64,000 nt of DNA from Thermoanaerobaculia bacterium (GCA_963664405.1 OY761158.1:576001-640000); one strand, 5' to 3'; shown: positions 11,770 to 41,813, numbered from the stretch's first letter. The notes: generated by a model not told the origin, from the letters alone. Program-made: numbers and translations.

Positions 11770-11789
11770 CGAGCAGATTATAAGCGGCC

Positions 11790-11850
11790 TTTCCTGTCGC
11801 CCTTCTGGGATCAGCGGCTCAGGGCTCGATTCCCGCTGTCGCAAAGCACC
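11790..11850. repeat. Partial cassette-junction module (left end of array)
   Basis: gtcgccc..gggatcagcggctcagggctcgat..gctgtcgcaaagcacc matches modules at 29101, 35457, 38287; only a half-site remains. Confidence 0.7.
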
Positions 11851-11889
11851 TCCTGAGGTCTCGGCCGTACCCCCATGAGAAGACTCTCG

Positions 11890-12807
11890 TCAAGGGTGCG
11901 GGAGAGGATCCCAGGCCCAGAAGGCGCCGAGCCACTCCTTGAAGGTCGCCGCCTTCGCCTCCCGCATCATGATCGCGACATGGGCGTAGCGGTGAAGCAC
12001 GCACCAGGCGCGGAGTGACCGGAGGAGCTCTCGGGTCGGTTCCACCCCCCGTCCCTCCAGCATCCCCCGCTCTGCCGCTTCGTCTCCGCGGGTGAGGTAG
12101 CAGGCCGGCGCGGCGAGCTCGTAGGTCCAGGGCCCGACGAACGCGTCCGCGAAGTCGATCAGTCCAACGATACGACCGCCACGCACGAGGAAGTGGTCGC
12201 TGGTCAGATCCGCGTGAAGCAACACCGGCTCCGCGGAGACTAATTCGGGCAGTGGGGTCACGAATCGAAGCAGCGCGGCTTCGAGCTCGTCGTCACCGCC
12301 CCGATCACGCTGGTCTTCACACAGCGCCGGCAGACGTTCCGCCACGAGGGCATCTTGGTCGATCTGCAGGTGTTCCAGTCCGGCGGTCGGCAGGTCGTTG
12401 AGCCGCGCCATCGTCTCCCCCATCTGCCGAGCGAAAGAGACGCGCTCCGAGGGGGACGACCGGGGCCAGACCTCAACTATGGGCTCGCCCTCGAGATGGC
12501 TCATCACGACATAGGGCCAGCCGTCTATCTCTCCAACATGCTCCAGCTGGGGAACGCGGATCTGCGCGCCCGTCAGATGCCGTAGGAGCGAGACTTCCAC
12601 CTCCGCGTCCTCGGGCCAGAGGGGAACGAAGACCTTCAGGACCGATCGCTTCGTGTGCCAGACCAGGTGCGTACCGCGGTCGAAGGGCCGGAGCTCCGAC
12701 GCGGAGAGCCCGTGCCGCTCGGCGATGGCAATCATCGCCCGGCGCTGGGCCCCGGTGTCGTGCCGGAGCGCGCGGTACTCCTCGATGGACGGAACGGGCG
12801 GCAACAT
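11890..12807 (-). CDS. Aminoglycoside phosphotransferase (APH)/choline kinase family
   Basis: GWPYVVMS, LLHADL, GLIDFADA. Confidence 0.85.
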   Translation of the reverse strand: MLPPVPSIEEYRALRHDTGAQRRAMIAIAERHGLSASELRPFDRGTHLVWHTKRSVLKVFVPLWPEDAEVEVSLLRHLTGAQIRVPQLEHVGEIDGWPYVVMSHLEGEPIVEVWPRSSPSERVSFARQMGETMARLNDLPTAGLEHLQIDQDALVAERLPALCEDQRDRGGDDELEAALLRFVTPLPELVSAEPVLLHADLTSDHFLVRGGRIVGLIDFADAFVGPWTYELAAPACYLTRGDEAAERGMLEGRGVEPTRELLRSLRAWCVLHRYAHVAIMMREAKAATFKEWLGAFWAWDPLPHP

Positions 12808-12890
12808 CCCGAAATCCTATCGACTCGCGCGCGGTTCCCAACTCACGCTCCCGGAGCGACGTAGATGAAACGCCCCGACCTCCTCAGCGA

Positions 12891-14551: not shown

Positions 14552-14581
14552 CTCACCGATCCTCCCTGGCGGTTGTGGCAA

Positions 14582-15625: not shown

Positions 15626-15652
15626 TATCGCAGTTCGCCCGGAAAGGCGACT
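15626..15652. repeat. 27-bp cassette-junction site (degenerate)
   Basis: TATCGCA-gttCGCCcggaaa-GGCGACT. Confidence 0.6.
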
Positions 15653-15889: not shown

Positions 15890-16099
15890 GTTTCCTCCTT
15901 TGTCAGCGCGGACCAGGGTACTGCATTTGGCACCATCTCCTGTCGCCCTCCTGCTCCGAGGCCAGGACCAGGATGTCGCCTCTCACCCAGAAAGGCGTAT
16001 CTGGACTCCTCTGTCAAGGACTCCTCCTTTGTTTCTTCAGGAAGTTCGGGCGATCACATGGTCATTGCCTCCGGGGCGAGCTCGAGAGCGAATCCTAGA

Positions 16100-16260
16100 C
16101 GGTAGGTCTGACTGCAGTCGTATCTTCGGCCCGTTGGTGGAGCTTCTCTATGCTCCTGGCCAGGATGGATTCCGCGGGCGGGGAGCCAATCGACACACGG
16201 CCCTGAATAGGCCAGCCTTTCGTCGGCTCTCCCCCGCCCCGGTCCGACCGGTTCGCCATC
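16100..16260 (-). ncRNA. Predicted IS1111 bridge/seek RNA
   Basis: Hairpins with loop segments CGAAAGGC and GTGTGTCG (match target) and TCCATC and AGATAC (match circle junction); boundaries approximate. Confidence 0.65.
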
Positions 16261-16306
16261 GTTACGTCTCTCGAAGCAGTCACTGGGTGGGTTCTAGTAA
16301 GGGGAT

Positions 16307-17336
16307 CTACGCGGCTTTTCTTTCGATGGTGAAGTCTCGATCCTCGCGCCACACCGTCCAGGCAATGCGGGCGATCTTGTTCGCCAGCGCGACGGCGGCG
16401 CGGTTGTGTCCTCGGCGTTTCTCGACCTGCAGCGCCCACGTGTACAGAGGGCTTGGGTTGTGGACTCTCTTGGCCGCCAACAGACAGGACCGAGCGCCGT
16501 GAATCAGAAGCCACCGCAGGTACTCGTCGCCTTGTTTGCTGATGTGGCCGAGCCGACGCTTTTGGGCGGTGGCGTGCACGCGCGGGGTCAGGCCCAAGTA
16601 CGATCCAAAGCGTCGAGCCGAGGGGAAGCGGTGGATCTCGCCGACAAACGCCACCATCGCGGTGGCGGTGAGCGGGCCGATGCCGGGCACAGATTGCAGA
16701 TGCGCGACGGCGGGCATCGTCGGGGCCAGTGCCTCGAGCTGCTTGGAAACGCTCGCGCAGCGCCGCTCCAGCTCCCGGATCTCCTCACATGCTTCCGCCA
16801 GGGTCAAACGCATGGGGTCGGGCAGATCGTTGGCGTCATCTGCGATCAGCTCTCGTACCCGGGGCACTACGTTCTTGGCACCCTGGGCGATGAAGTGACC
16901 GTGCTCTCGCAACAGGCCGCGTACGCCGTTCAGCCGTGCCGTGCGCGTCTCCATCCAGGCCGAGCGCAACCGGTGCAAGGCCCCCACACCGCGCTGCTCG
17001 ACGGTCTTGATCGGCACCGGCTCGATCTCCTCGTTGCGGTCGGCTTCCAGCAGCGCCTTCGCATCCGTGCGATCGGTCTTCTTGTGCCGGCGACGGTAGG
17101 GCCGTACCAGGTGAGGCGGTAGCAGCACCACCTCGTGACCGAGCTTCTGGATCTCCTCAGCCCAGAAGTGGGCGGAACCACATGCCTCCAGAAGCACACG
17201 CGAAGCCTCGCGCTGCGCGAAGAACCGCAGAAACTTCTTCCGCGACAAGCGACACCGTTCGGCCACCTTCCCGGGAACGTGGGACACGGCGATCTCCAAG
17301 ACGTTTTTCGCCAAGTCGACGGCGATGGTCGTAGAC
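16307..17336 (-). pseudogene. IS110-family transposase; first codons displaced to 20732-20736 by the IS21 insertion
   Basis: (MQS)TTIAVDLAKN, LEACGSAHFWA, KTDRTDA, PGIGPLTA, GLTPR, ISKQGD, AVALANK. Confidence 0.9.
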
Positions 17337-17695
17337 TGTTGATGGCTGCGAGAAAGCGCATCCCGTTGGCTGCGAGCGCAGTTTCCGGGATGGAGTGAGC
17401 TGAGGGCTTCGCGACCGCGGGAAAGCTAGGCCTTCTTCAGGAAGGGCGGCATCATCCCGCCGGAACGGCGGTCCGGGTGCGTGGTCCCGGCGGCGTGTTT
17501 GCGGTCGGAAGAGATGCGTGAGTCGGTGTAGGGCTTTGCAGTGCGGGCTCTGCTCTGATAGAGCAGGCCGACCAGAGACGGCGAGAGCCCGGGAAAGCGA
17601 AGTAGAAAACGCCCCGGGCTCTGCCCCAAACCGCAGCATTAGCTGCGCTTGCAGTATGGCAGAGAGTCGGGGTCGTCGTCGAATGGGAGGCGACG

Positions 17696-18091
17696 ATGCG
17701 ACCGGACTACCGACTCTTCGACTGTGCTCGATGCCGTCGGCGTATCTCGCTGTGCTCGCACTGTGACCGTGGCCAGCGTTACTGCCGGGCTTGTGCTCTG
17801 GTGGCTCGTCGGGAATCGACTCGGGCGGCCGGCCATCGGTACCAGCGAAGCCTCCGAGGTCGGCATTGTCATGCCGCCCGTCAGGCCCGCTACCGTCGGC
17901 GCCAGCGCGAGCGGGCAGAGAAAGTGACGCATCAGGGTACCCCAGGCGGTACTTCGGGGAGGACACTGTGTCGGATCGAGACTCCGAGGCGCGAAGTGCG
18001 CTACGACCCGAGGAATCCGCGATGCATGCAGTGTGGAGAGGCCTGCCGAGAGTTTGTGCGAACGAGCTTTCGTCGTTGCCGACGGAGATAG
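17696..18091 (+). CDS. Cys-rich (Zn-finger-like), Arg-rich accessory ORF in IS21
   Basis: CARC...CSHCDRGQRYC..C, second CMQC; directly upstream of istA. Confidence 0.65.
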   Translation: MRPDYRLFDCARCRRRISLCSHCDRGQRYCRACALVARRESTRAAGHRYQRSLRGRHCHAARQARYRRRQRERAEKVTHQGTPGGTSGRTLCRIETPRREVRYDPRNPRCMQCGEACREFVRTSFRRCRRR

Positions 18092-18095
18092 GGGC

Positions 18096-19604
18096 GTGAT
18101 CGACGCACAGCTGCGCGGGGAGATCCGTCGTCTGTTCCTGGTCGAGAAGTGGAAAGTCGGCACGATCGCTCGACAGCTACAGCTGCACCCCTCAACCGTG
18201 CGCCGGGCGCTGGAGAAGTCCGGCGTGCTACCCCAGCAGCGACGAGGGAGGATGATCGATCCTTACCTGCCGTTCATCGAGCAGGTGCTCGGGACCTACC
18301 CACGACTGCCGGCGAGCCGTCTCTACACCATGGTGGTGGAGCGCGGCTATCCAGGAGGCCCGGATCAGTTTCGCCACCTGGTGGCCTCGATGCGACCGAA
18401 GCCCCAGCGCGAGGCGTTTCTCTCGCTGCGCATGCTGCCAGGAGAGCAGGCGCAGGTCGACTGGGGCCACTTCGGTCGGCTCCGCGTCGGCCGGGCACAT
18501 CGTCGGCTCTATGCCTTCGTCTTCGTGCTGTCGTTCTCGCGCACGGTCTTCGTGCACTTCACCCTCGACACTCGTCTCGAAACCTTCTTGCACGCTCACC
18601 AGCTGGCCTTCCACTACGTCGACGGCGTCGTCAGGACCGTTCTGTACGACAACCTGCGAACCGCGGTGATCGAGCGGCAGGGAACCGCGGTGCGCTTCCA
18701 TCCCGTGCTGCTCGATTTCGCCAGCCACTACGGCTTCCTTCCCACCGTCGCCGCGGTGGCTCGGGGAAATGAGAAAGGCCGCGTCGAGCGCGCAATCCGC
18801 TTCCTGCGAAGCTCGTTCTTCGGCGCCCGAACGGTGAGCGATTTGGATCGTCTGAATCGGCAGGTCCTGGAATGGTGCCAGAGGTCGCAGCGCAGACCCT
18901 GGCCGCAGGACCGACAGCGAACCGTGAAAAGCGCCCTGGCCCAGGAACGACCTCGACTGCTTGAGCTTCCCGGAGACGACTTCGAAACCGACCTGCGACT
19001 GGAGATCAAGGTCAGAAAGACGCCGATCGTGCGCTTCGACCTCAACGACTACTCGGTGCCGCACAGTCATGTGCAGAGGACCGTCACGCTCCTCGCCAGC
19101 GAGCATCGGGTGCGGATCCTCGATGGCCAGGAGCTCCTCGCCGAGCACCCTCGCTCGTACTCCCGGGGCGAGCAGATCCTCGATCCTCAACACCTCGAGG
19201 AGCTCCTCGCTCACAAACGCAGGGCCCGACGACACCGGGGCTTCCATCGGCTGTTTTCCGCTGTGCCTCGATGCGAAGAGCTGATGCAGCAGCTCGCCGA
19301 GCGAGGCGAGAACCTCGGAACGCAGACCGCCGGCCTGCTCCGACTCCTGCGCCAGTACGGCCCCCAGCGACTCGACAAAGCCGTGCGCGAAGCGCTCCTG
19401 AACCACGCACCGCGATTCCAGTCCGTCCGGCTCCTACTCGAACGGCACCAGCGCGGCCTCGGTCAGCCCCCGGCTTTACCGGTGCCGCTCAGCCAGGAGC
19501 TCCAACAGCGAGATCTCTCCGTGAGACCGCACAACCTCGAGGACTACGACCAACTTGGAGGCAACGACGATGGCCCGACCCAGGAAGAGTCCAACGATCC
19601 CTGA
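18096..19604 (+). CDS. istA: IS21 transposase IstA
   Basis: PGEQAQVDWG, LYDNLRT, EKGRVERAI. Confidence 0.92.
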   Translation: MIDAQLRGEIRRLFLVEKWKVGTIARQLQLHPSTVRRALEKSGVLPQQRRGRMIDPYLPFIEQVLGTYPRLPASRLYTMVVERGYPGGPDQFRHLVASMRPKPQREAFLSLRMLPGEQAQVDWGHFGRLRVGRAHRRLYAFVFVLSFSRTVFVHFTLDTRLETFLHAHQLAFHYVDGVVRTVLYDNLRTAVIERQGTAVRFHPVLLDFASHYGFLPTVAAVARGNEKGRVERAIRFLRSSFFGARTVSDLDRLNRQVLEWCQRSQRRPWPQDRQRTVKSALAQERPRLLELPGDDFETDLRLEIKVRKTPIVRFDLNDYSVPHSHVQRTVTLLASEHRVRILDGQELLAEHPRSYSRGEQILDPQHLEELLAHKRRARRHRGFHRLFSAVPRCEELMQQLAERGENLGTQTAGLLRLLRQYGPQRLDKAVREALLNHAPRFQSVRLLLERHQRGLGQPPALPVPLSQELQQRDLSVRPHNLEDYDQLGGNDDGPTQEESNDP

Positions 19605-20364
19605 CGAACCACTACGAGAGCTCGCCCGATCCCTCGGCTTCTACGCCCTCGTCGACGACTGGGGCACCTACCGAGAACAGCCCTGGCTCGAACAGCTGCT
19701 GCGCAAAGAAGAGGCCGAGCGCAAACGGCGCAGCCTCGAACGGCGCATCCGCACCAGCCGCGTCGGGCTCTTCAAGAGCATCGCCGACTTCGACTTCTCC
19801 TGGCCCCAGCGCATCGACCGCGAGCAGATCCAGGATCTGCTCACCCTCCAATTCCTCGACGACATCACCAACGTCATCCTCCTCGGACCCAACGGTGTCG
19901 GCAAGACCATGATTGCCAAGAACCTCCTCTACCAGGCGCTGCAACGAGGGGCCACCGCCAGCTTCGTCACCGCCTCCGACATGCTCAACGATCTCGCCGT
20001 CCAGGAAACCCCCTCGGCGCTCCAGAGAAGGCTCTCCAAATACACCCGACCCTCGCTTTTGGCAATCGATGAGCTCGGCTATCTCTCCTACGACCACCGC
20101 CACGCGGATCTCCTCTTCGAGGTCGTCTCCAGGAGATACGGCAACAAGCCCATTCTTCTCACCACCAACAAGCCCTTCGCCGAATGGGCCGAGGTCTTTC
20201 CCAACGCCTCCTGCGTCGTCACTCTCGTCGATCGACTCACCCACCACGCCGAGATCGTCAAGATCGAGGCTAACTCCTATCGCCGCAAGGAGGCCAAGGA
20301 GGCTGCTGAAAAAAAGGCCAAGGACCGCGCCAAAAGGCGGAGCGCAGCACGACGACGCTCATGA
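19570..20364 (+). CDS. istB: IS21 helper ATPase IstB
   Basis: FDFSWP, GPNGVGKT, LLAIDELGY, LVDRLTHH. Confidence 0.92.
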   Translation: MARPRKSPTIPDEPLRELARSLGFYALVDDWGTYREQPWLEQLLRKEEAERKRRSLERRIRTSRVGLFKSIADFDFSWPQRIDREQIQDLLTLQFLDDITNVILLGPNGVGKTMIAKNLLYQALQRGATASFVTASDMLNDLAVQETPSALQRRLSKYTRPSLLAIDELGYLSYDHRHADLLFEVVSRRYGNKPILLTTNKPFAEWAEVFPNASCVVTLVDRLTHHAEIVKIEANSYRRKEAKEAAEKKAKDRAKRRSAARRRS

Positions 20365-20717
20365 CCCGAAGCCACTATCGGCGCCAGCTCCTCCGCCTCT
20401 ATCGACTCCTTCCCGACACCCCGCACCGCTTCCACCACGGCGACCGCGTCATCGTCGACCAGCTCTTCGACCAAGACCTGCCTCTCACCGTCCTCCAGGC
20501 CGCCCTCCTCCTCGGCTCCGCCCGACGCGCATGCCGAGATCCGCGCCTACCAAAGCTCCAGCCCATCCGATCCCTCGCCTACTTTCTCCCCATCCTCCGA
20601 GAACTCCCCACGACGCCACCCCCCGAGGGGTACCTCGACTATCTGCGCCACACCCTGAGTCACGCCTCGCGGGGACAAAAAACCGACTCGCAGCCAACTA
20701 AGTGCGCTTTCTCGTAG
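20361..20717 (+). CDS. Hypothetical accessory ORF inside IS21
   Basis: ATGA overlap with istB stop; ends inside the right IR. Confidence 0.55.
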   Translation: MTRSHYRRQLLRLYRLLPDTPHRFHHGDRVIVDQLFDQDLPLTVLQAALLLGSARRACRDPRLPKLQPIRSLAYFLPILRELPTTPPPEGYLDYLRHTLSHASRGQKTDSQPTKCAFS

Positions 20718-21006
20718 CCGGTAACATAGACTGCATAGCGGACTCCTCTCATGTGAACGTTACGGTTCGTGCGACCTTGACATCTTAGATGCCGCTACAA
20801 GTCGCGGGAGGAGTCCATTCCATCAACATAGCCACTTTCTGAAGGCTTGAACGAAGGCCGCTGCGCGGCAGTTCCGGACGATGAGTCGAAGATCGTGGTC
20901 GTAGCGCCGGGCGTGAGCCGCGCCGAGAGTTAGCCACGGTCGAGGAAAGTCTCCATCCTCTTGGTTTGGCGTCAATGCCGACGCCTGCAACGAGGAGGAC
21001 CCTGTC

Positions 21007-21867
21007 ATGGGTGCACTGAGAGATCGGATGGAGACGGACATGAAGCTGCACGACTTTCGACCGGCGACCCAATCGCAGTACTTGCACTGCGTGCGCCGGC
21101 TGGCGAAGCACTACGGGCGCTCGCCCGATGAGCTGTGCGAAGAGGAGGTGCGCAGTTTCCTGCTCTACCTCCGCGAGGACCGTGCTTTGAGCTCGGCGAG
21201 TATCAGCACCTACACGGCGGCGCTGAAGTTCTTCTACGGGATCACCCTTCACCGCGAGGAGATGGTGCCCTCGTTAGGCGCGCCGAAGGTGCGCACGCAG
21301 CTTCCGGTCATCCTCTCGGGCACCGAGGTCGCGGCGGTGCTTGGCGCGATCCGCTCGCACGAGCTGCGTACGTTGGCCACGGTTCTGTACGCTTCGGGCC
21401 TGCGCATCAGCGAAGCGTGCGCGCTGGAGGTGTCAGACATCGACTCCGAGCGCATGCTGATCCATGTGCGCGACGGTAAGGGCGGGCGCGACCGCTTCGC
21501 CCTTCTCAGCCCGCAGCTGCTCAAGGTGCTGCGTCGATACTTCCGCAAAGAGCGCCCCGAGCCGCCCTATCTGTTTCCCGCTCCGCGCTCCGGCAAGACG
21601 TTGCGCCCCGACACGGTGCGTAAGAGCCTGCATCGGGCGGCTTTGCGCTGCGGGATTGTCAAGCGTGTGACCCCACACCTGCTGCGTCACTGCTTTGGCG
21701 CCCACATGCTGGAACTGGGCACTGATATCCGTGTGCTGCAGGCGCTGTTGGGTCACCGCTCGATCCGCACGACCCAGCTGTACGTACAGGTCTCCACCCA
21801 GCTGATCGCGCGCACCCCAAGCCCGTTGGACCTGCTCGGCACTCCCGCGGGCAAGGTCCTCGGATAA
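21007..21867 (+). CDS. Site-specific tyrosine recombinase/integrase
   Basis: SGLRISE, GKGGRDR, HLLRHCF, LLGHRSIRTTQLY. Confidence 0.95.
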   Translation: MGALRDRMETDMKLHDFRPATQSQYLHCVRRLAKHYGRSPDELCEEEVRSFLLYLREDRALSSASISTYTAALKFFYGITLHREEMVPSLGAPKVRTQLPVILSGTEVAAVLGAIRSHELRTLATVLYASGLRISEACALEVSDIDSERMLIHVRDGKGGRDRFALLSPQLLKVLRRYFRKERPEPPYLFPAPRSGKTLRPDTVRKSLHRAALRCGIVKRVTPHLLRHCFGAHMLELGTDIRVLQALLGHRSIRTTQLYVQVSTQLIARTPSPLDLLGTPAGKVLG

Positions 21868-21885
21868 CCGCGCGCTACAGCAACC

Positions 21886-23112: not shown

Positions 23113-23466
23113 TCCCACGCCTTTCTCTTCCCGCGCTCCCGGTCCCGCCGCGGACAAGGCGGAGGTGTGCCCGCGGTGGCTCCGAACCCAAAATCGAGAC
23201 GCCGGTGGACCTCCCAGGGGCCGCGCAGGCGCCTGACCGCAACCCAGTGCACCTCTGGAACTACCTCACAACCCTCGACCTGGGGCGCGTCGCGCGCAGC
23301 ACAGCCTGCCAACGAGGCTGATAACCCCATACACAACCGCTCGTCTGGCGGCCTCCGCTCAAGCCAGGTCTAGCAGAATCCCGCTCGGGTAGATCCGCGC
23401 GACGACGACCCTCCTACCTCGCGGGACTCTGCGAGATCCTTCTCCTTATGCAGAACGAGCTATAGC

Positions 23467-23493
23467 TGTCGTAGTGCGCCGAAAACTGCGACA
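23467..23493. repeat. 27-bp junction site (second site of the module split by IS1111 and IS91)
   Basis: TGTCGTA-gtgCGCCgaaaac-TGCGACA; 4 bp from the stop codon at 23498. Confidence 0.8.
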
Positions 23494-23497
23494 CCCA

Positions 23498-23929
23498 TCA
23501 GAGCGCAAGCGCGCCGAAGTAGACAAAGGGCGCGCTGATGGCGATGCGCACCAGTCCCAACAGGCGCCACCCGATCAGGCTCCCACTCAGGTCAGAGGGC
23601 ACGAACGCCTGGATGATGGCTCGGAAAGAGCCTGGGAACAGCACCAACGCTGTTGTCATGAACACGACCAAGACCCAGCCGATGAGCGACAGGATGAACG
23701 CCAAGGTGCTCTGCCCATTCAGGTCCAAGGACCCCTGCTCTGAAGCTCCTGCCCAAATCATCGCCAACCCGAGTGGGAGCAGGAACGCCCCGAACGTTCG
23801 GGTTCGACCGTTCGTCGTGGTCGTCCTAGTGAACCAGCGCAGCACAGACGCTGGCGCGACGAAGACGAAGCCCCCGTAGCCAACACCGAGGACCCCAACC
23901 GCGATGCTCACGATTCCAAGCGCGCTCAC
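23498..23929 (-). CDS. Four-TM membrane protein
   Basis: Hydrophobic helices; AAGGAGG RBS before GTG. Confidence 0.75.
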   Translation of the reverse strand: MSALGIVSIAVGVLGVGYGGFVFVAPASVLRWFTRTTTTNGRTRTFGAFLLPLGLAMIWAGASEQGSLDLNGQSTLAFILSLIGWVLVVFMTTALVLFPGSFRAIIQAFVPSDLSGSLIGWRLLGLVRIAISAPFVYFGALAL

Positions 23930-24054
23930 GAGCCCTCCTTAGAGACTTCCTTGGGGGTGGCTGAACAAGCTACCCGAGTGGCTGCTTTCAGCGCCATCGA
24001 ATGGACAGCATTCTAGCTGGCGGTTCAGGAGCCTGATAGCTATTCAGCTCTTCC

Positions 24055-24081
24055 TGTCGTCCTTCGCCACATTTCGCGACA
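24055..24081. repeat. 27-bp junction site
   Basis: TGTCGTC-cttCGCCacattt-CGCGACA, preceded by cagctcttcc. Confidence 0.75.
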
Positions 24082-32800: not shown

Positions 32801-34242
32801 GACAATCCCTTTTCCGAGGCCCAGTTCAAGACCCTCAAGTACCACCCGAGCTTCCCCTCCCGATTCGCCAGCCAGGAGGCCGCCCAGGCTTTCTGCAGGA
32901 CCTTCTTCCCTTGGTACAACACCGAGCACCGCCACGGTGGGATCGCCCACCTGACGCCGCACGGCGTCCACCACGGTCGAGCGGAGCAGGACCTTGCCGC
33001 ACGGCAAGTCACGCTCGATGCCGCCTTCCAAACTCACCCAGAACGCTTCCTCCGAGGGCGACCCATCGTCTCGCCTTTACCTGGAACCGTATACATCAAC
33101 CGGCCTGAGGATCCGCAGGTCTCGACCGAAGAGGACCTTCACTAATTTATGACTCGAGGTGTCTCAAAGTTCTTGACAGGTTCCGCGATGATCTTGTGCT
33201 CGACTATCAAGAGGGCAAGGAAAAGTACGCCTATGATCTTCGGTTCTCGCGGGGTGGGATTCGCAGATGGGTAACCAAAAGGCGAATGCCTCGCCATCAG
33301 TGCAAGTCGTGCAATCATGCATTTATACCGGTCGAACCGAAGTCTCAACAGCGCCTCGGCCACAACCTGCTCGCTTGGGCCATGCACCAGCATGTCATCA
33401 ACCGAACTTCCCTCGCGAACCTGACGATGACCGCACGTGAGTGTTTTGGCTTGGAACTCGGAGAATGGGACTTCCAGAGGCTGAAGTCAATGGCCGGGAA
33501 GTACTATCAAGAAACGTATGACAAGTTACTGAGTGAGCTGGTGGCGGGGCCTCTGCTTCATATCGACGAGACGAGTGTTTGGTTAAGAGGCCATGTCACC
33601 GGCTACGTGTGGGTATTCACAAGCATGGAGTCGGTCGTGTTCATGTACCGGTCTACGCGGGAAGGCGATTTTCTACACGACCTCTTGCGGACGTTCACGG
33701 GCGTAATGGTGACGGACTTCTATACGGCGTATGACTCGATACAGTGCCCACAGCAAAAATGCCTAGTGCACCTGATGTGGGATATCAATCGGGCGCTGCT
33801 TAAGCATCCGTTTGACGAGGAACTGAACGAACTTGGCAGGACGTTTGGGACTCTCATGCGAGATGTCGTCGGCACAATCGATCGATTTGGTTTGAAGGAC
33901 CGGTATCTGAGAAAGCATCGAGAGCAAGCGTCGACATGGCTTCGCGGACTGCGAGGGAGTCCGTGGAAATCGGTCATCGCGGAGAAGTTTCGTAAGAGGA
34001 TTGTCAAGTACGACGATCGTCTATTCACTTTCCTCGACTACGATGGCGTACCTTGGAATAACAACAACGCTGAGAATGCAATTAAGCCGTTTGCGAAGTA
34101 CAGAAGACTGGTTCGGGGACGGATAACCGAGCCTGGACTTCGCGACTATTTGGTGCTGCTGAGTATTGCCCACACATGCAAATACCGTAGCGTCTCACTG
34201 CTTGACTTTCTCTTGTCCGGGGCTCAGGAGATTCCTGATTGA
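29829..34242 (+). pseudogene. TM0106 RecB-like nuclease / IS66-family transposase fusion, split by IS3
   Basis: N-part: YLDCPYK, HCHICQHHDRC, YIDMEG, FHYGSYD, LKDVAAFLGFEW, YNRDDC. C-part: LHIDET, GYVWVF, VMVTDFYTAYD, QKCLVHL, VPWNNNNAENAIK. Lower GC than flanks. Confidence 0.85.
31516..33185 (+). mobile_element. IS3-family element (orfA 31587-32141, orfB ~32138-33145)
   Basis: RRTFTAEYKLRIL; PNQVWSWDIT, HSDRGSPM, DNPFSEAQFKTLKY; G-GGA-AAA slippery site at 32087; imperfect IRs; 2-bp CG duplication; removal restores the host frame (KS|DDLV). Confidence 0.88.
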
Positions 34243-35456
34243 GCGGGCTCCGCCGGGGATCCTCCACTCTTAACTGTAATCGCGACTCTGGCACCCTCGC
34301 TGCCGGATATGCGCTCGGCAACCAGGGAGTCGAGAGGGCGCCGGTAGAGGCTGGTCTCGGCTCCCTCGCGACGGACGAAGACCACCATCCGACCGTCCGG
34401 AGAGAGCGCGAAGGGCTGATCCGGAGCTGCCTCGAGGTCGAGAGCCGTGACCGTCCAGGTGTCGCCCGAGGCAGCGTCGCTCGCCGCATCGCCTCCATCT
34501 CGGAACAGGACGAAGCCCAAGACAAGACCGACCACCACGGCGAGGGCGAGGACGAGGACCGCCAACACCGGTCGCCTGGTAGGCACCGTCTCGGTCTCGG
34601 GCTTATCGGTAAGGGCCTCGAGTTCGAGGGCCAGGTCGTGGGCGTGCCAGCGCCGCTCGGGAGCCTTCTCGAGGCAGCGACTCACCAGCCAGTCGAGGCG
34701 ATCGGGAGCGACTGGCCGCCGCTCCCGTAACGGCTCCGGCTCGCTGGTCATGATCGCGGCCATGAGCCTCACCTGGGATTCCCCGGCAAAGGGTCGCGCT
34801 CCGGTCACCATCTCGTAGAGGACAGCACCCAGCCCCCAGATGTCCGAGCGCTCGTCGGCCTCCTTGCCTTCGAGCTGCTCAGGGGCCATGTACTGGAGCG
34901 TCCCCAGGATCGAGCCTTCGCCGGTCAGGGGCTGCGTGACGGTCGGGGTCTGTGTATCCCCCACGGCCAGCCCGGAGTGAACCACGCCCTTGGCGAGGCC
35001 GAAGTCCAGAACCTTGGCTCCGTCTCGGGTCAGCATGACATTGCCAGGTTTGAGGTCCCGGTGGATCACTCCGTGACGATGGGCGGCATCGATGGCCTCG
35101 GCGATCTCCGAACCGATCGTCGCCACCTCCTCTAGGGGCAGGGCGCCGCGTCGAAGCCGGTCCTCGAGAGTTTCGCCCTCCAGGTACTCCATGACCAGGT
35201 AATCGACACCGTCTTCGCTGCCAATGTCGTGGAGGGTACAGATGTTGGGATGGCTCAGCTGCGAGAGGCTCTTCGCTTCACGCTCCAGCCGCTGGCGGTA
35301 GAGCGTGTCCTGCCCGAGCTCCTCAGGCAGTACCTTGATCGCGACATCCCGCTCCAGGCGTGTGTCACGACCCAGGTACACCTCTCCCATGCCGCCCTTT
35401 CCGCGCAGCTCGACGATCTCGTAGGGACCGAGGCGGGAGCCTGGTTCTAGAGCCAT
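34224..35456 (-). pseudogene. Ser/Thr protein kinase, C-terminally truncated paralog
   Basis: GKGGMGEVY, HRDLKPGN, DFGLAK, YMAPEQ, TM; similarity to the full copy ends near 34280. Confidence 0.85.
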
Positions 35457-35609
35457 GACTTGGCGACATCTTACCCGTCGCCCGGTGGAATCAGCGGCTC
35501 GGAGCTCGATCTGTGCTGTCGCACCTCACCCGGAAGTGCGACACCGCCCCGATTTCGGGGCCTATCGACTTTCAGCTATGCCTGTCGCACTCCGCCAGCA
35601 AAGGCGACA
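35457..35609. repeat. Full junction module (39-bp spacer type)
   Basis: TGTCGCA-cctCACCcggaag-TGCGACA (35517-35543) + TGTCGCA-ctcCGCCagcaaa-GGCGACA (35583-35609); TAAGAT on - strand 11 nt before kinase ATG. Confidence 0.9.
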
Positions 35610-35619
35610 AGGCCCGCGC

Positions 35620-38286
35620 TCACGAGCCCCCATCGGAGAACATCTCGAGCACCTTGGCCCGCCAGTTCTGGATGAAGACTCGACGCTCCTCCTCGTCCTC
35701 TGCCGCCTGGATCATGAGGAAGCGACCGTCGGGGTGGATATCGTAGTTCTGGAAGCGGGTGGCCACGCGCAGGTACTCATCCACGAAGAGTGGCTCGGGA
35801 CGGCGGGTGACGAGACGCTCGCCGGTGATCTCGACCGGGAGCGTCATCATGTGGGTCGGGCTGCGATAGAGGATCTCCCGGCCTTCGGGGGAGAAGCTCG
35901 CCTCCTCGCCGCCGTCGAAGGTGAGCTGGCGCGGCTCGCCGGGACCGGGGAAGGGCCGAATCCAGACGTTCGCTTGTCCCTCAACGCGCACCGAGTAGGC
36001 GATCCAACGTCCGGCGGGGTGGAAGCGGGCGGCGTGGACCTGCTTCCCCTCGAGGAGGGTTTCGGACTCCCCGCTCTGCCGGTCGAAGACCCAGAGCCCG
36101 TTGACATCGAGGAGGCCCGTGTAGAGCAGGTAGCGCCCGTCCGGGGAGAAGTCGAGCGGGAGTTGGTTGTGCTCCGACGGTACGAGACGCTCCGCAGAGG
36201 ACCTGCGATCGGCGGGCTGGATGTAGATCTGCCGGCGTCCCTCGAAGCGATCCGACGCGAAGACGATCTCCCGTCCGTCGGGGGGCACCCACATCGCGCC
36301 AGTGTTGCGATTCCCCTCCTGGGTCGGGCGGGTCCAGGAGCCGGTCCCGAGGTCGAGCATCCACTGCTCATTATTCCCCCTGGCGTTGCGGGCTGCCACC
36401 GAGATCCGGCGCCAGTCCAGGGAATGTCGCGGCCTCGAGAAAGGCTTGCGCTCTGGCGCCACCTCCTCGATGTCCAGGCCGTCCCGACTCACCCAGACCA
36501 GGCGGTCCCCATTCCGACTCCCGAGGACGTAGAGCAGGTCGCCCGAGTCGGCGAGCGCGAAGCGGCCGCCGGCACCGACGCTGCCGGGGGACGGGGCCAC
36601 CCCGGTCTCGACCTGACGCGCTGGGCCGAGGAGGTCGGCGGTCTCGGGATCGATCGGCACCGCCCACAGTCCGCCTTCGCGATAGAAGACCAAAACCCCC
36701 GGATTGAGATAGCGCGGCTGCGTCCCAGGGAGGAGAACCCGTTCCTTGCCGGTCTCGAGGTCCACCGCCAGCACATCGCGCCCGAAGCCGTCCTGACGCT
36801 CGGATCTCGATTGGGTCAGGGCGATCCGTTCACCAGGCAGAAGCGCTGCCCCGTCGCCATGTCGTCCCACCTGCTCGGGGACACCCCCACCCGCCGGAAT
36901 CCGCCATAGCTCGCGAGACGTGGCGCTGCCTATCTCAGGCGTGTAGTAGAGGAAGCCGTCGCGCCCCCAGACAGCGGCTGCGCGGATCCGGATCCCTTCC
37001 ACCAGAGCGCTGGCGCCGCCTCCACCCTCCACGCGAAGCGTCTTCAGACTGCCCCCGGCGTCCACGAAGGCAAGCTGTTTGCCGTCGGGCGAGAAGATCG
37101 GGCTGCGGGCACCGTCGCTGCCGGAGATGCGCTCGACGACCAGGGAGCCGAGAGAGCGCCGGTAGAGGCTGGTCTCGGCTCCCTCGCGACGACGGAAAAC
37201 CACCATCCGACCGTCCGGAGAGAGCACTGCGGGCTCATCCGGAGCTGCCTCGAGGTCGAGAGCCGTGACCGTCCAGGTGTCGTCGGAGGCAGCGTCGCTC
37301 GCCGCATCGCCTCCATCTCGGAACAGGACGAAGCCCAAGACAAGACCGACCACCAGGGCAAGGAGGCCGAAGGCACCGGCGAGGACCGCCGATACCTGAC
37401 GCTTGGCAGGCGCCGTCTCGGTCTCGGGCCTATCGGTAAGGGCCTCGAGCTCCAGGGCCAGGTCGTGGGCGGAATGCCAGCGACGCTCGGGGGCCTTCTC
37501 GAGACAGCGGCTCACCAGCCAGTCGAGGCGGTCGGGAGCCACTGGCCGCCGCTCCCGTAACGGCTCCGGCTCGCTGGTCATGATGGCCGCCATGAGCCTC
37601 ACCTGGGATTCCCCGGCAAAGGGTCGCGCTCCGGTCACCATCTCGTAGAGGACCGCACCCAGACCCCAGATGTCCGAGCGCTCGTCGGCCTCTTTGCCTT
37701 CGAGCTGCTCCGGGGCCATGTATTGAAGGGTCCCCAGGATCGAGCCTTCGCCGGTCAGGGGCTGCGTGACGGTCGGGGTCTGTGTATCCCCCACGGCCAG
37801 TCCGGCGTGAACCACGCCCTTGGCGAGGCCGAAGTCCAGGACCTTGGCTCCGTCTCGGGTCAGCATGACGTTGCCGGGCTTGAGATCGCGGTGGACTACT
37901 CCGTGACGATGGGCGGCATCGATGGCCTCGGCGATCTGCGATCCGATCGCCGCCACCTCATCCAGCGGCAGGGCGCCGCGTCGAAGCCGACCCTCGAGGG
38001 TCTCGCCCTCCAGGTACTCCATGACCAAAAAGTCGACACCGTCTTCGCTGCCAATGTCGTGGAGGGTACAGATGTGGGGATGGCTCAGCTGCGAGAGGCT
38101 CTTCGCTTCACGCTCGAGCCGCTGGCGGTAGAGCGTGTCCTGCCCGAGCTCCTCAGGCAGCACCTTGATCGCTACATCCCGCTCCAGGCGTGTGTCGCGG
38201 CCCAGGTACACCTCTCCCATGCCGCCCTTGCCGCGCAGCTCGACGATCTCGTACGGACCGAGGCGGGAGCCTGGTTCTAGAGCCAT
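35620..38286 (-). CDS. Ser/Thr protein kinase with TM and TolB/PD40 beta-propeller
   Basis: Hanks kinase motifs; repeated SPDG/FSPEG blades; YDIHPDGRFLM. Confidence 0.92.
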   Translation of the reverse strand: MALEPGSRLGPYEIVELRGKGGMGEVYLGRDTRLERDVAIKVLPEELGQDTLYRQRLEREAKSLSQLSHPHICTLHDIGSEDGVDFLVMEYLEGETLEGRLRRGALPLDEVAAIGSQIAEAIDAAHRHGVVHRDLKPGNVMLTRDGAKVLDFGLAKGVVHAGLAVGDTQTPTVTQPLTGEGSILGTLQYMAPEQLEGKEADERSDIWGLGAVLYEMVTGARPFAGESQVRLMAAIMTSEPEPLRERRPVAPDRLDWLVSRCLEKAPERRWHSAHDLALELEALTDRPETETAPAKRQVSAVLAGAFGLLALVVGLVLGFVLFRDGGDAASDAASDDTWTVTALDLEAAPDEPAVLSPDGRMVVFRRREGAETSLYRRSLGSLVVERISGSDGARSPIFSPDGKQLAFVDAGGSLKTLRVEGGGGASALVEGIRIRAAAVWGRDGFLYYTPEIGSATSRELWRIPAGGGVPEQVGRHGDGAALLPGERIALTQSRSERQDGFGRDVLAVDLETGKERVLLPGTQPRYLNPGVLVFYREGGLWAVPIDPETADLLGPARQVETGVAPSPGSVGAGGRFALADSGDLLYVLGSRNGDRLVWVSRDGLDIEEVAPERKPFSRPRHSLDWRRISVAARNARGNNEQWMLDLGTGSWTRPTQEGNRNTGAMWVPPDGREIVFASDRFEGRRQIYIQPADRRSSAERLVPSEHNQLPLDFSPDGRYLLYTGLLDVNGLWVFDRQSGESETLLEGKQVHAARFHPAGRWIAYSVRVEGQANVWIRPFPGPGEPRQLTFDGGEEASFSPEGREILYRSPTHMMTLPVEITGERLVTRRPEPLFVDEYLRVATRFQNYDIHPDGRFLMIQAAEDEEERRVFIQNWRAKVLEMFSDGGS

Positions 38287-38428
38287 GAGTTGGCGACATC
38301 TTACAGTCGCCCGGTGGATCAGCGGCTCAGAGCTCGATCTGTGCTGTCGCAGAGCACCCAAAAGTGCGACAGCGGGAGGCTTATTCGCTTCGAGCTATTC
38401 TTGTCGTGGTCCGCCCCCAAATGCGACA
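38287..38428. repeat. Full junction module (30-bp spacer type)
   Basis: TGTCGCA-gagCACCcaaaag-TGCGACA (38345-38371) + TGTCGTG-gtcCGCCcccaaa-TGCGACA (38402-38428). Confidence 0.9.
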
Positions 38429-38458
38429 GTCTCGTCCGACTTGCGCCGCGCCGGCTCT

Positions 38459-39110
38459 TCAGGCTCTGGCAAGCAGAGCTTCCGTAAGGCCGACGTGTCT
38501 GGGCATCCCGATCTGCTCGTAAATGGTGAGCGCCTCTTCCAGGAGCCGATGCGCCCGAGCCGTGTCGTCGGGGGCGGCACGTTCGAGGAGCATATCCGCG
38601 TACCAACGACGGGCGTCCGCCTGCTCACTCTTGAAAGGGATTCTCTCGGCCTGGTCGAGAGCCTCTCGGAAGTGCTCTTCAGCGCGATCCCAATCGCCGA
38701 GGCAGGAGGCCCCGATGCCGGCAGTCGTCTGCAGGAGCCGCGGAACGTTAGGCGGGATGAGCGTGCCGGTATCGATGGCTCTCTCGAGCATCGGGTAGAG
38801 CTCAGCGGCCCGGTCCCGCTCTCCCATGATGGCGAGCGCCTCTGTAGCGCCCAGTAGAATGGACCAAGCACCGTTGGCGTTCGGGCCGGAGCCTCGAGGA
38901 AGGGCGTCTTCCGAGTCAACGAGGGCGAGCACCTCGCTTCGTCGACCGAGATAGCCGGAGACGAGGAGCAACGAGGACGTGGTGACGCCGTAGAGCGCCC
39001 CGACCGGCTCTCCTCTCACGGCTTCTTCCAAAAGGTCGTACGCCGCCTTCCAGTCGCCTCTCCAGAACGCAGCCAAACCACGCCACCCTCGCGCGAACGA
39101 ATGCCAAGGC
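38459..39110 (-). pseudogene. TPR-like C-terminal fragment of a signalling protein, truncated at IS91 copy 2
   Basis: WDRAEEHFREALDQAE, ARAHRLLEEALTIYEQIGMPRH. Confidence 0.65.
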
Positions 39111-39270
39111 TTGAACGAAGGCCGCTGCGCGGCAGTTCCGGACGATGAGTCGAAGATCGTGGTCGTAGCGCCGGGCGTGAGCAGGGCCGAGAGTTAGCCA
39201 CGGTCGAGGAAAGTCTCCATCCTCTTGGTTTGGCGTCAATGCCGACGCCTGCAACGAGGAGGACCCTGTC

Positions 39271-40131
39271 ATGGGTGCACTGAGAGATCGGATGGAGACG
39301 GACATGAAGCTGCACGACTTTCGACCGGCGACCCAATCGCAGTACTTGCACTGCGTGCGCCGGCTGGCGAAGCACTACGGGCGCTCGCCCGATAAGCTGT
39401 GCGAAGAGGAGGTGCGCAGTTTCCTGCTCTACCTCCGCGAGGACCGTGCTTTGAGCTCGGCGAGTATCAGCACCTACACGGCGGCGCTGAAGTTCTTCTA
39501 CGGGATCACCCTTCACCGCGAGGAGATGGTGCCCTCGTTAGGCGCGCCGAAGGTGCGCACGCAGCTTCCGGTCATCCTCTCGGGCACCGAGGTCGCGGCG
39601 GTGCTTGGCGCGATCCGCTCGCACGAGCTGCGTACGTTGGCCACGGTTCTGTACGCTTCGGGCCTGCGCATCAGCGAAGCGTGCGCGCTGGAGGTGTCAG
39701 ACATCGACTCCGAGCGCATGCTGATCCATGTGCGCGACGGTAAGGGCGGCCGCGACCGCTTCGCCCTTCTCAGCCCGCAGCTGCTCAAGGTGCTGCGTCG
39801 ATACTTCCGCAAAGAGCGCCCCGAGCCGCCCTATCTGTTTCCCGCTCCGCGCTCCGGCAAGACGTTGCGCCCCGACACGGTGCGTAAGAGCCTGCATCGG
39901 GCGGCTTTGCGCTGCGGGATTGTCAAGCGTGTGACCCCACACCTGCTGCGTCACTGCTTTGGCGCCCACATGCTGGAACTGGGCACTGATATCCGTGTGC
40001 TGCAGGCGCTGTTGGGTCACCGCTCGATCCGCACGACCCAGCTGTACGTACAGGTCTCCACCCAGCTGATCGCGCGCACCCCAAGCCCGTTGGACCTGCT
40101 CGGCACTCCCGCGGGCAAGGTCCTCGGATAA
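39271..40131 (+). CDS. Site-specific tyrosine recombinase/integrase
   Basis: One amino acid different (E/K) from 21007..21867. Confidence 0.95.
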   Translation: MGALRDRMETDMKLHDFRPATQSQYLHCVRRLAKHYGRSPDKLCEEEVRSFLLYLREDRALSSASISTYTAALKFFYGITLHREEMVPSLGAPKVRTQLPVILSGTEVAAVLGAIRSHELRTLATVLYASGLRISEACALEVSDIDSERMLIHVRDGKGGRDRFALLSPQLLKVLRRYFRKERPEPPYLFPAPRSGKTLRPDTVRKSLHRAALRCGIVKRVTPHLLRHCFGAHMLELGTDIRVLQALLGHRSIRTTQLYVQVSTQLIARTPSPLDLLGTPAGKVLG

Positions 40132-40149
40132 CCGCGCGCTACAGCAACC

Positions 40150-41376
40150 GTGCACCCCCAGCAGGGGTGCGCTCGGCAGCTCGACCGCAAAGCGGGTCGG
40201 TCTCGCTATGACCTGGGCGAGATCTTCCGGGCGCACATCGACGCCTTCCGTGACCGCCACTTCTTGAGTCCTTTACAGGCTCAGGTGGTGCGGGCGATCT
40301 GTGCCTGCCGCACCGCGCAGCTGGGCGGGCATCTGGACGTGTGTCGGGACTGCGGCTATAGGCGCCCTGCGTATAACTCATGCCGGAATCGTCACTGCCC
40401 CAAGTGCCAGGCGCTGGATCAGCACCGTTGGCTCGAGCGGCGCCTGTCTCGCATTCTCCCGGTCGGCTACTTTCACGTCGTCTTCACCCTGCCGGGGGAG
40501 CTCGCCTCAGTGGGTCTGCGCAACCGCCGCCTTGTCTACGAGCTGCTCTTCCGAGCCGCGGCGGAAACGCTTCTGACCCTCGGCAAGGATCCCCAACGGC
40601 TCGGAGCCCTGCTCGGCATCACGATGGTGCTGCACACCTGGACTCGGGACCTGCGTTTCCACCCCCATATCCACGCCATCGTCACCGGCGGAGGACTCAG
40701 CCTCGACGGACGGCGGTGGCTCTCGACGGGCGAGAAGTATCTGTTTGCCGTCAAGCTTCTGGGGAGGCTGTACCGCGGTAAGTTTCTCGGCCACCTGGCC
40801 CGTGCCTACAAAGACGGACAGCTCGACCTGCCACGAGATCTGGCCGAGGACGGTGGCTTCGATCGCCTGCTGTCGAAGCTCTACGCCAAGGACTTCATCG
40901 TCTACGCCAAGCGTCCCTTCGCCGGTGCGCAGCAGGTCTTCTCCTACCTGGGCCGCTATACCCATCGAGTCGCACTGTCCAACCACAGAATCCTCAACGT
41001 CACGGAGCAGGCCATCACCCTCGCCACGCGCGATGGCAAGACCGTGACGCTCTCTCCCGAGGAGCTCATCCGCCGCTTTGTGCTGCACGTCCTGCCCCGA
41101 CGATTCCAAAAGATTCGCCACTATGGACTCATGGCCTCGGCCAACGTCCACTCTCGCCTCGAGCGAGCCCGCGCTCTGCTCGAGTCCACCGCCACAGCGA
41201 CCCAGGCCGAAACCTCCCACCCCATCCCCATCGAGTCGGAAACCACAAACGAGCTCCTCCAACGCCTCACCGGCATCGACCTCGCGATCTGTCCCGCCTG
41301 CCAAGGTCCCCGCCTCCAACGTTTCCCCCTCGACACTCCTGCCTACGCCCGGCCTCCACCGGTGGCGGCCGCGTGA
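40150..41376 (+). CDS. IS91-family (Y2/HUH) transposase
   Basis: YNSCRNRHCPKC, HPHIH, YLGRYTHR. Confidence 0.92.
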   Translation: MHPQQGCARQLDRKAGRSRYDLGEIFRAHIDAFRDRHFLSPLQAQVVRAICACRTAQLGGHLDVCRDCGYRRPAYNSCRNRHCPKCQALDQHRWLERRLSRILPVGYFHVVFTLPGELASVGLRNRRLVYELLFRAAAETLLTLGKDPQRLGALLGITMVLHTWTRDLRFHPHIHAIVTGGGLSLDGRRWLSTGEKYLFAVKLLGRLYRGKFLGHLARAYKDGQLDLPRDLAEDGGFDRLLSKLYAKDFIVYAKRPFAGAQQVFSYLGRYTHRVALSNHRILNVTEQAITLATRDGKTVTLSPEELIRRFVLHVLPRRFQKIRHYGLMASANVHSRLERARALLESTATATQAETSHPIPIESETTNELLQRLTGIDLAICPACQGPRLQRFPLDTPAYARPPPVAAA

Positions 41377-41756
41377 TCGCGCGCCTTTCTCTTCCCGCGC
41401 TCCCGGTCCCGCCGCGGACAAGGCGGAGGTGTGCCCGCGGTGGCTCCGAACCCAAAATCGAGACGCCGGTGGACCTCCCAGGGGCCGCGCAGGCGCCTGA
41501 CCGCAACCCAGTGCACCTCTGGAACTACCTCACAACCCTCGACCTGGGGCGCGTCGCGCGCAGCACAGCCTGCCAACGAGGCTGATAACCCCATACACAA
41601 CCGCTCGTCTGGCGGCCTCCGCTCAAGCCAGGTCTAGCAGAATCCCGCTCGGGTAGATCCGCGCGACGACGAACCTCCTGCCTCGCGGGACTCTGCGAGA
41701 TCCTTCTCCATAAGACGACACCGATGCTCGGAAAGGCCAGTAGACGTTGGACCGTC

Positions 41757-41813
41757 GTGTTGGCCCAGGGGCGAAAGGCGACAGTTTGTCGCGATATGTG
41801 CGTGGGTGCGACA
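41757..41813 (-). repeat. Two adjacent junction-type sites in inverted orientation (right end of array)
   Basis: On - strand: TGTCGCA-cccACGCacatat-CGCGACA and TGTCGCC-tttCGCCcctggg-CCAACAC, 3 bp apart. Confidence 0.6.

Follow-up and report, generated by a model that had tools for sequence, protein, structure and literature searches.

Paired 27-bp sites as probable crossover points of single-gene cassettes in a Thermoanaerobaculia bacterium

Why should the same short element stand, often in pairs, between gene after gene of a bacterial chromosome? The question is raised by a window of 64,000 nucleotides from Thermoanaerobaculia bacterium (GCA_963664405.1, OY761158.1), in which a 27-bp site, TGTCG-N17-CGACA, recurs; the window corresponds to positions 576001-640000 of one contig, and its source genome, which we call G000, comprises 6.78 Mb. 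The original prediction, made from the window alone, proposed a site-specific array in which genes are shuffled. By comparing the copies with one another we arrive at a similar view: the 27-bp elements are probably crossover sites of a conservative site-specific recombination that reassorts single-gene cassettes, an integron-like arrangement built on sites other than attC and served by a recombinase that is not assignable. The proposal of shuffling holds to the extent that breakpoints, both between paralogous arrays and between genomes, fall at the sites and at their CRCC core; the cargo is less diverse than had been supposed. A limited search of the published literature returned no description of these sites or arrays. 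What is new is the site, and probably the specificity of the enzyme; cassette arrays maintained by site-specific recombination are of a known kind.

The site and the junctions within it

The exact pattern TGTCG-N17-CGACA occurs eight times in the window (at 23467, 24055, 26260, 35517, 35583, 38345, 38402 and 41787), compared with a mean of 0.07 and a maximum of 1 in 100 dinucleotide-preserving shuffles. When up to two mismatches are allowed, there are 61 matches in the window against 44.4 expected, that is, mostly noise. Since mismatch counting mostly returns background, we instead derived a weight matrix from those exact copies in the genome that have CRCC at site positions 11-14 (n=88). The genome-wide scan that had been suggested then finds 107 sites above 20 bits in the 6.78 Mb, most of them in about ten arrays, and no match above 18 bits in 2 Mb of shuffled sequence. 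The matrix also recovers the near-copies in the window at 26203 (27.6 bits), 29163 (25.1), 29229 (21.9) and 15626 (20.2), so the sites recur as first listed; outside 15626-38428 the window contains no site above 20 bits.

The full consensus, TGTCG-N5-CRCC-N8-CGACA, is 27 bp long. Positions 1-5, 11-14 and 23-27 are invariant, so the fixed place of CRCC noted in the window holds throughout; the inner arms vary, with an excess of A/T at positions 17-20. Among the 107 sites, positions 6 and 22 (C or T, and G or A, respectively) combine as CG in 36, TA in 16, CA in 32, TG in 21 and GG in 2, which fits independence, and from positions 7/21 onward there is no pairing or covariation. RNAalifold, applied to 59 modules, returns only the 5-6-bp stems of the sites (covariation term -0.08). 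By eye the spacer often shows a short GC hairpin whose sequence varies from copy to copy, but the consensus structure does not contain it. Because the stems do not covary, the ends look like half-sites of a protein dimer placed two helical turns apart and not like a hairpin, which argues for reading the outer pentamers as probable protein half-sites. A scan of the window against Rfam at the gathering threshold gives no match, and the module is not matched in the plasmid collection.

Two subtypes can be distinguished by their cores, A (CACC) and B (CGCC), and within a pair A always comes first and B second. The usual module is A-39 bp-B, less often A-30 bp-B, with starts 66 or 57 bp apart, so that the pair spacers do take only the two lengths originally reported. 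The spacers hold the conserved motifs CTTATC and GCTAT, and unpaired sites are mostly of type B.

In order to locate where similarity between copies breaks, we compared all pairs of A sites (n=861) and of B sites (n=1830), and selected the pairs in which one flank is at least 85% identical. For the 27 A pairs with matching right flanks (24 sites), positions 15-22 reach a similarity of 0.84, against 0.40 over all pairs, and positions 6-10 (0.42 against 0.45) and the left flank (0.47 against 0.44) are at the level of all pairs. Conversely, the 120 A pairs selected for their left flanks (0.91, against 0.44) are alike at positions 6-10 (0.66 against 0.45) and not at positions 15-22 (0.41 against 0.40). 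The B sites behave in much the same way: the 35 pairs with matching left flanks show 0.91 in that flank (all pairs 0.37), 0.61 at positions 6-10 (0.41) and 0.39 at positions 15-22 (0.46), and the 23 pairs with matching right flanks show 0.67 at positions 15-22 (0.46), 0.53 at positions 6-10 (0.41) and 0.48 in the left flank (0.37). Overall, the left and right halves of a site have separate histories, which meet in the 4-bp core.

Individual halves tell the same story. Among 12 copies of the A left half CACCT there are 10 different right halves; the right half GAATTTCA, present in 10 copies, is combined with 6 different left halves; and one 30-bp spacer together with the right half CAAAAGTG is attached to 4 different A left halves. 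A 582-bp cassette (window 23488-24069) is 99.5% identical to genome positions 4990909-4991490, so that it stands in two arrays, with different neighbours on both sides. Its identity runs through TGTCGTCCTTCGCCA of the B site (...TCGCCA) and then stops, which places the right junction exactly at the core; the event is a recent one. Similarly, a kinase cassette family with seven copies has different neighbours at its seven positions. Ends of BLAST alignments between arrays fall at site positions 14-17 (10 ends), 26-30 (9) and -2 to 1 (8); this agrees with a break at the core, but with 24 alignments the sample is too sparse to carry weight. A similarity profile drawn from metagenome contigs alone has spacers too uniform for placing the break within the site.

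A further family of sites, TGCACCTTCCACTAGAAAAGGTGCA (also written TGCACCTTCCAC...), has 8-9-8 geometry and a CCAC core, and is present in about eight copies (G000 869193, 2758785, 3979835, 3979944, 4411958, 5002397, 6018768 and 6514875). It can take the place of A before the usual spacer and B. Moreover, there are hybrid sites in which halves of this family (TGCACCTTCCAC...) are joined to A halves at the core.

The breaks can also be followed between genomes, as the original prediction had proposed. A hydrolase gene is about 93% identical in G000, in a second genome (G773) and in a metagenome contig (L047), and its neighbours differ among the three. In G773 and L047 the promoter-side A half is kept, while distal half, spacer, B site and upstream gene are different; the G000 locus lacks an intact module and is the point at which synteny is lost. 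The breakpoints fall in the sites, with the joint once more at the core.

Beyond G000, exact site copies number 0-5 in each of 40 relatives of the same family or order, against 88 in G000, with a convincing few in G008 only; the combination GCTAT-N3-B, found 36 times in G000, is absent from 400 other genomes sampled from the class. Exact A-N-B modules are present on three contigs of metagenome-assembled genomes (MAGs) and on 30 metagenome contigs (1-6 kb), where the sites score 26-40 bits. In a megablast search of these 33 loci against G000, 14 have no match and 19 match in part, at 76-96% identity. Their cargo includes kinases, cyclase-TPR proteins, sulfatases, hydrolases, DsbA, a metallo-beta-lactamase-fold protein and isochorismatase, and some of their B-to-B units measure merely 245-360 bp; the sites are conserved between organisms that carry different cargo. 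Since modules of 93 bp break short-read assemblies, such arrays are largely invisible in MAGs.

Gene context, arrays and insertion elements

Within the window the array and its interruptions are laid out as follows.

11837..11850, plus strand: distal array boundary, an A-site left half, TGTCGCAAAGCACC, ending CACC and joined at the core to unrelated DNA
15626..15652, plus: degenerate B-type site, 20.2 bits, two mismatches in the outer pentamers
15974..15997, plus: A site interrupted after position 24 by an IS110 insertion, with its last three bases, ACA, at 20826-20828
15998..20825, unstranded: IS110-family element inserted between CG and ACA of that A site
16307-17314, minus: IS110 transposase
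17336-20726: nested IS21-like element, 3.39 kb, within the IS110 element
20847..23445, plus: IS91-family copy 1, in the A-B spacer after CTTG and before TTAT
21007-21867 and 21886-23112: tyrosine recombinase and Y2 transposase genes, respectively, of IS91-family copy 1
23467..23493, plus: B site with CGCC core, 4 bp from the stop of a gene of 143 amino acids (aa)
23494..24054, minus: cassette with this 143-aa gene, of no known family
24055..24081, plus: B site at the right-hand limit of cassette identity, which ends after ...CGCCA (site position 15)
24404..25984, minus: MFS transporter gene, cargo
26203..26286, plus: A-30 bp-B module (A 26203-26229, B 26260-26286)
29163..29255, plus: A-39 bp-B module, one outer-pentamer mismatch in each site
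34224..35456, minus: cassette with a truncated Ser/Thr kinase of 410 aa, TAAGAT lying 11 nt upstream of the ATG
35517..35609, plus: A-39 bp-B module separating two kinase genes
35620..38286, minus: Ser/Thr kinase with PD40 beta-propeller repeats, TAAGAT again lying 11 nt upstream of the ATG
38345..38428, plus: A-30 bp-B module
38459..39076, minus: 3' fragment of an AAA_16/TPR kinase cassette, cut by IS91-family copy 2
39111..41709, plus: IS91-family copy 2 (recombinase 39271-40131, Y2 transposase 40150-41376)
41710..41813, plus: remnant of a terminal module, with the right end of A, a spacer of about 36 bp, a degenerate B*, GTT and an inverted site C (41787-41813)

Both incomplete sites of the original prediction, the half at 11837 and the split pair 15974/20826, are real: the former is joined to unrelated DNA, and the IS110 element, with its nested IS21-like element, lies between the two parts of the latter.

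Two other sequences of the window are repeated in the genome. A repeat of about 170 bp (14581-14749) has more than 30 scattered genome copies at 93-98% identity; it is MITE-like (resembling miniature inverted-repeat transposable elements) and has no relation to the 27-bp sites. Proteins of about 340 aa without a Pfam match form a family, encoded at 12891-13967 and in 54 other places, that gives 55 tblastn matches in G000.

Genes lie on the strand opposite to that of the site as written, so that in gene direction the order is stop, B, spacer, A, promoter-like region, ATG. For 46 of the 61 B sites the stop codon of an open frame of at least 100 codons lies within 120 bp, and for 28 within 13 bp; the distances of 4, 10 and 30 bp first reported from the window are correct, and belong to B sites. 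At 32 of the 42 A sites an open reading frame (ORF) of at least 100 aa starts within 160 bp, and in 19 of these 32 the distance is 58-61 bp. A TANNNT hexamer stands 4-14 nt upstream of the start codon at 22 of the 42 A sites, and its distance from the start suggests that leaders are very short; the -10-like boxes of the original prediction are represented by the TAAGAT upstream of the two kinase starts (35456 and 38286).

Orientation is uniform within an array, except for the inverted site of a terminal module found at the gene-upstream array end. In this module an A site is followed after about 36 bp by a degenerate site and, 3 bp further on, by a variant site in inverted orientation. There are nine copies in G000, and it is also present in G008 (same family) and in G773; the genes beyond it show no conservation. 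The sites at 41757 and 41787, read at first as an inverted pair, are indeed present, and belong to such a conserved terminal module, not to an ordinary pair; in the window most of its A site has been lost to an IS91-family insertion. ARAGORN finds no tRNA genes at array ends apart from one for tRNA-Lys, which lies about 180 bp away from the site at 2684027.

Ten site clusters are found in the genome: 17.6-41.4 kb, 591.6-617.8 kb (the window), 747.7-782.9 kb, 873.8 kb, 2674-2684 kb, 3944.8-3979.9 kb, 4411.8 kb, 4985-5004 kb, 5456-5475 kb and 6510-6523 kb. Their cargo had been described as mostly unrelated, which does not hold: one family of Ser/Thr kinases, of about 900 aa, dominates, with about 25 members carrying PD40 repeats, together with AAA_16/TPR kinases, and numerous insertion sequences are interspersed. 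The PD40 kinase cassette family that includes window 35620..38286 has seven copies in six arrays, two of them in the 748-783 kb array. Other cargo comprises a methyltransferase, DUF1326, a CHAD protein, an RpoD-like sigma factor, a Na/H exchanger, a GNAT acetyltransferase, DUF3604, the MFS transporter, a PLD-like protein, an amidohydrolase and many ORFs of no known family. The sigma factor gene, a full-length RpoD-like sigma-70 gene (regions 1.1 to 4), is a cassette in the 748-783 kb array (G000 771143-772837).

Two unrelated families of insertion sequence (IS) use fixed points of the module. An IS110-family element lies between TGT and CG (in the gene-strand reading) of an A site at window 15997/15998, in G773 (L080, at about 215) and in L042 (at about 2857); the identical insertion point, TGT^CG, at three different A sites in three genomes points to sequence-guided targeting of the site. 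The 3.39-kb IS21-like element, which has a Mu-transposase C-terminal domain and rve, has more than 20 genome copies at 99.9-100% identity, and the same nested pair of IS21 in IS110 is found in G773 at 99.8-99.9% identity. More generally, insertion sequences of G773 and G000 are 99.8-100% identical and ordinary genes 87-93%, which suggests that mobile elements were recently exchanged between the two lineages.

The second family is a 2.6-kb element that encodes a tyrosine recombinase of 286 aa (PF00589 and PF13495) and a Y2 transposase, the latter scoring 401.5 bits against NF033538 transpos_IS91 (cut-off 125). IS91 elements insert at CTTG/GTTC without target duplication. Both window copies have their left ends directly after CTTG, and with its Y2 HUH transposase and these CTTG-adjacent ends the element belongs to the IS91 family. 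ISfinder/TnPedia includes IS91 relatives that have an additional tyrosine recombinase. The element is present in or near arrays in five full copies and one partial copy. The right ends of three copies meet the spacer at the same point, before TTAT/CTAT, and a further right end falls within the A site of a terminal module; one copy has deleted the DNA from within a kinase gene to the terminal module. The recombinases of the two window copies are 99.65% identical and their Y2 transposases only 91.9%, so that the element is a mosaic. Integron attC sites are targeted by IS1111-type elements and group IIC introns, and by likeness to that targeting we count the use of fixed module points by two unrelated IS families in favour of cassettes.

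The enzyme and the competing explanations

The comparison of copies shows exchange inside or at the 4-bp CRCC core. If the sites are crossover points, a protein dimer would read the outer pentamers, two helical turns apart; the asymmetric core would give the site its polarity; and the A/G difference in the core would keep A and B from recombining together. Given this incompatibility, A x A or B x B events would excise or insert one gene together with one module.

Which enzyme might act? G000 has 25 matches to the Phage_integrase domain and 12 to the Resolvase domain, and four candidates may be named. The first is a tyrosine recombinase of 179 aa (G000 5456062-5456601), consisting of the catalytic domain only, with all catalytic motifs present by eye; it occupies the position of a spacer between a hybrid A (5456004) and a B (5456690) at the far end of one array, and a truncated copy stands at the far end of another. 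A search for it in 401 genomes of the phylum returns just Xer-like matches, at no more than 41% identity, in 352 of them. The second is the IS91-linked recombinase of 286 aa, of which the window itself encodes two copies (21007-21867 and 39271-40131). The third, a resolvase (gene at 6509415-6510104, domain match at 6509496), adjoins the first site of the 6510-kb array and is itself probably an insertion, because it lies next to an IS21-like element and a truncated module. Finally, the host's two Xer-like proteins, encoded near 3565746 and 5350062, may serve. Against the integron integrase model TIGR02249 the 286-aa, 179-aa and 221-aa proteins score 174.4, 68.3 and 77.3 bits, all below the 265-bit cut-off. 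The last of these is a fragment of a tyrosine recombinase; it lies 1.1 kb away from a B site and next to a reverse transcriptase/maturase of a group II intron (G000 2675383-2678371). Elsewhere in the genome, five near-identical large serine recombinases of 744 aa (G000 2343401, 3061206, 3327575, 6342275 and 2709297) suggest another active mobile element.

Several observations count against site-specific recombination. The B pairs matched by their right flanks keep the left half and left flank slightly above background, because some of them are plain duplicates. Site pairs are non-independent, many cassettes being paralogous, and the permutation p-values are descriptive only. A clustering-based test of association between halves was poorly resolved, as single linkage merged short strings and put the B right halves in one cluster. 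The sites in G773 and G008 are few, single ones before genes, and a regulatory box would look alike. Joints in contigs from sequencing runs are those of paralogous loci: six runs contain between 0.76 and 0.92 of the words sampled from 22900-29400, and four were compared with 22900-41900; no excised circle or empty site was found among these public-run contigs, which stop at repeats and are uninformative on excision and on strain differences. As to the enzyme, a resolvase gene stands beside just one of the ten arrays, and this gene itself looks like part of an insertion, so that the suggested likeness to serine-resolvase sites is not borne out. Nor did the expected co-occurring recombinase family emerge from four other site-bearing genomes: close homologues of the 179-aa and 286-aa proteins were not found in G008 and G772-G774, which is weak evidence, as these are incomplete MAGs. 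Lastly, a geometry of 5-bp outer repeats about a 17-bp centre, in an odd total of 27 bp, fits no recombinase site known to us.

The most serious competitor, which we nonetheless consider unlikely, holds that the sites are operators of a DNA-binding regulator (possibly with terminator or insulator function behind each gene) in a tandemly amplified kinase family, whose mosaic structure arose by duplication, gene conversion and homologous exchange between conserved intergenic modules. An operator would explain the fixed distance of 58-61 bp from A to the start (19 of 32), the TANNNT hexamers (22 of 42), the B sites close to stops (28 of 61) and the single sites before genes in G008 and G773, and outer pentamers without stem covariation do resemble the half-sites of dimeric proteins. 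However, homologous exchange does not account for breaks within a 4-bp core, the invariant stretches of 5, 4 and 5 bp being far too short for it, nor for a 99.5% identical cassette that stops exactly at the core. For a regulon, moreover, the box-to-start distance is fixed for the kinase cassettes, yet the flanked genes are diverse, functionally unrelated and non-syntenic between genomes; and inspection by eye, without a scan, revealed no sigma-54-type element between A and the ATG. The sites may also serve recombination and regulation alike.

We regard it as less probable still that the 93-bp module is a selfish repeat, akin to repetitive extragenic palindromes (REPs), bacterial interspersed mosaic elements (BIMEs) or MITEs, spread by a transposase of the REP-associated tyrosine transposase (RAYT) kind or by another. 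The short terminal inverted repeats (TGTCGYR...YRCGACA) and the intergenic position after stop codons would suit such an origin, as would the two unit types with few linkers, in which E. coli BIMEs are alike, the very uniform A-right/spacer/B-left part of the metagenome set, and the targeting by IS110 elements, to which REPs are also subject. A mobile unit, however, would link its two ends, whereas here the flanks are linked to the adjacent halves and the halves are unlinked; stem covariation is absent, and the copies are clustered in arrays in one orientation and not dispersed. The genome has 13 weak Y1_Tnp matches, none of them near sites, so that with the lack of covariation nothing assigns the module to the REP/RAYT group. 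Membership among MITEs likewise fails, on the linkage of halves to flanks and not to each other and on the absence of target duplications at module ends, which were sought by eye in part of the modules. The module thus behaves neither as a MITE nor as a REP.

That the arrays were built by rolling-circle, one-ended transposition of the IS91/ISCR kind, with the sites as surrogate termination or origin signals for Y2, is very improbable: five full copies and one partial copy in or near arrays, three right ends at the same spacer point, both window left ends after CTTG and the one kinase-to-terminal-module deletion speak for it, and it fails because IS91 junctions lie in the spacer or the A right half, whereas cassettes join at the CRCC core, most cassette junctions have no IS91 nearby, and site-bearing contigs of other organisms (1-6 kb) carry no Y2 gene.

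We therefore return to site-specific recombination of cassettes as the favoured explanation. A more specific version of it, which we put forward tentatively and with considerable doubt, is a cassette platform of marine Acidobacteriota, independent of IntI and Xer, in which a dedicated recombinase (possibly the 179-aa protein of array ends) would exchange promoter-bearing cassettes at the CRCC core, A and B would keep the two ends of a cassette distinct, and the outcome would mainly be the diversification of beta-propeller sensor kinases.

Comparison with known systems

Among bacterial systems that accumulate single genes and rearrange them, the integron is, to our knowledge, the only one that is well understood. 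If our interpretation is true, there would be a second, unrelated platform in a little-studied phylum, so that the strategy would have evolved more than once; it would provide a new pair of recombinase and site for genome engineering, and would explain the very large eukaryote-like Ser/Thr kinase families of some Acidobacteriota.

The res sites of Tn3 and gamma-delta share TGTC...GACA ends about two helical turns apart and the presence of several subsites per locus. Unlike them, the present sites have an odd length and therefore lack a symmetric 2-bp crossover point at the centre; breaks in similarity are seen in A as well as in B, as if both subsites underwent crossovers, and nine of the ten arrays are without a linked resolvase. 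REPs and BIMEs resemble the modules in lying between genes after stop codons, in having two unit types with a small set of linkers and in attracting IS110 elements; here, in contrast, the units are direct and not alternating in orientation, they are clustered in arrays, their stems do not covary, and gene-sized pieces appear to be exchanged at the unit centre.

A further comparison is with the pdif/Xer modules of Acinetobacter plasmids, in which sites of about 28 bp flank single-gene modules in varied contexts, and on which a host recombinase encoded elsewhere probably acts. The pdif sites have 11-6-11 geometry, conserved inner arms and alternating orientation, whereas ours are chromosomal direct repeats of 27 bp with conserved outer pentamers and an off-centre core.

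The nearest parallel is with integrons and clusters of attC sites lacking integron integrases (CALINs). As in those systems, we find long same-direction arrays of mostly single-gene units, each bounded by a conserved site, with cassette boundaries at the site's recombination point; a distinct compound site at the upstream array end; several integrase-less arrays per genome; and a bipartite site, composed of two inverted-repeat simple sites and a variable centre, that is parasitised by site-specific insertion sequences. The differences are equally clear. The ends here are TGTCG/CGACA, whereas attC sites carry RYYYAAC/GTTRRRY and are imperfect palindromes of 57-141 bp that fold single-stranded; the simple sites here are direct repeats, both with apparent crossovers, and have no covariation sign of a folded strand. 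The cassettes here have their own promoter-like sequences and are often large (2.7-kb kinases), and the best match to an IntI-type integrase reaches 174 bits on TIGR02249, against 265. Because the two defining features of the integron family, the IntI integrase and attC sites, were both looked for and are both absent, we place the arrays outside that family, as a system that resembles integrons in its architecture and differs from them in its sites.

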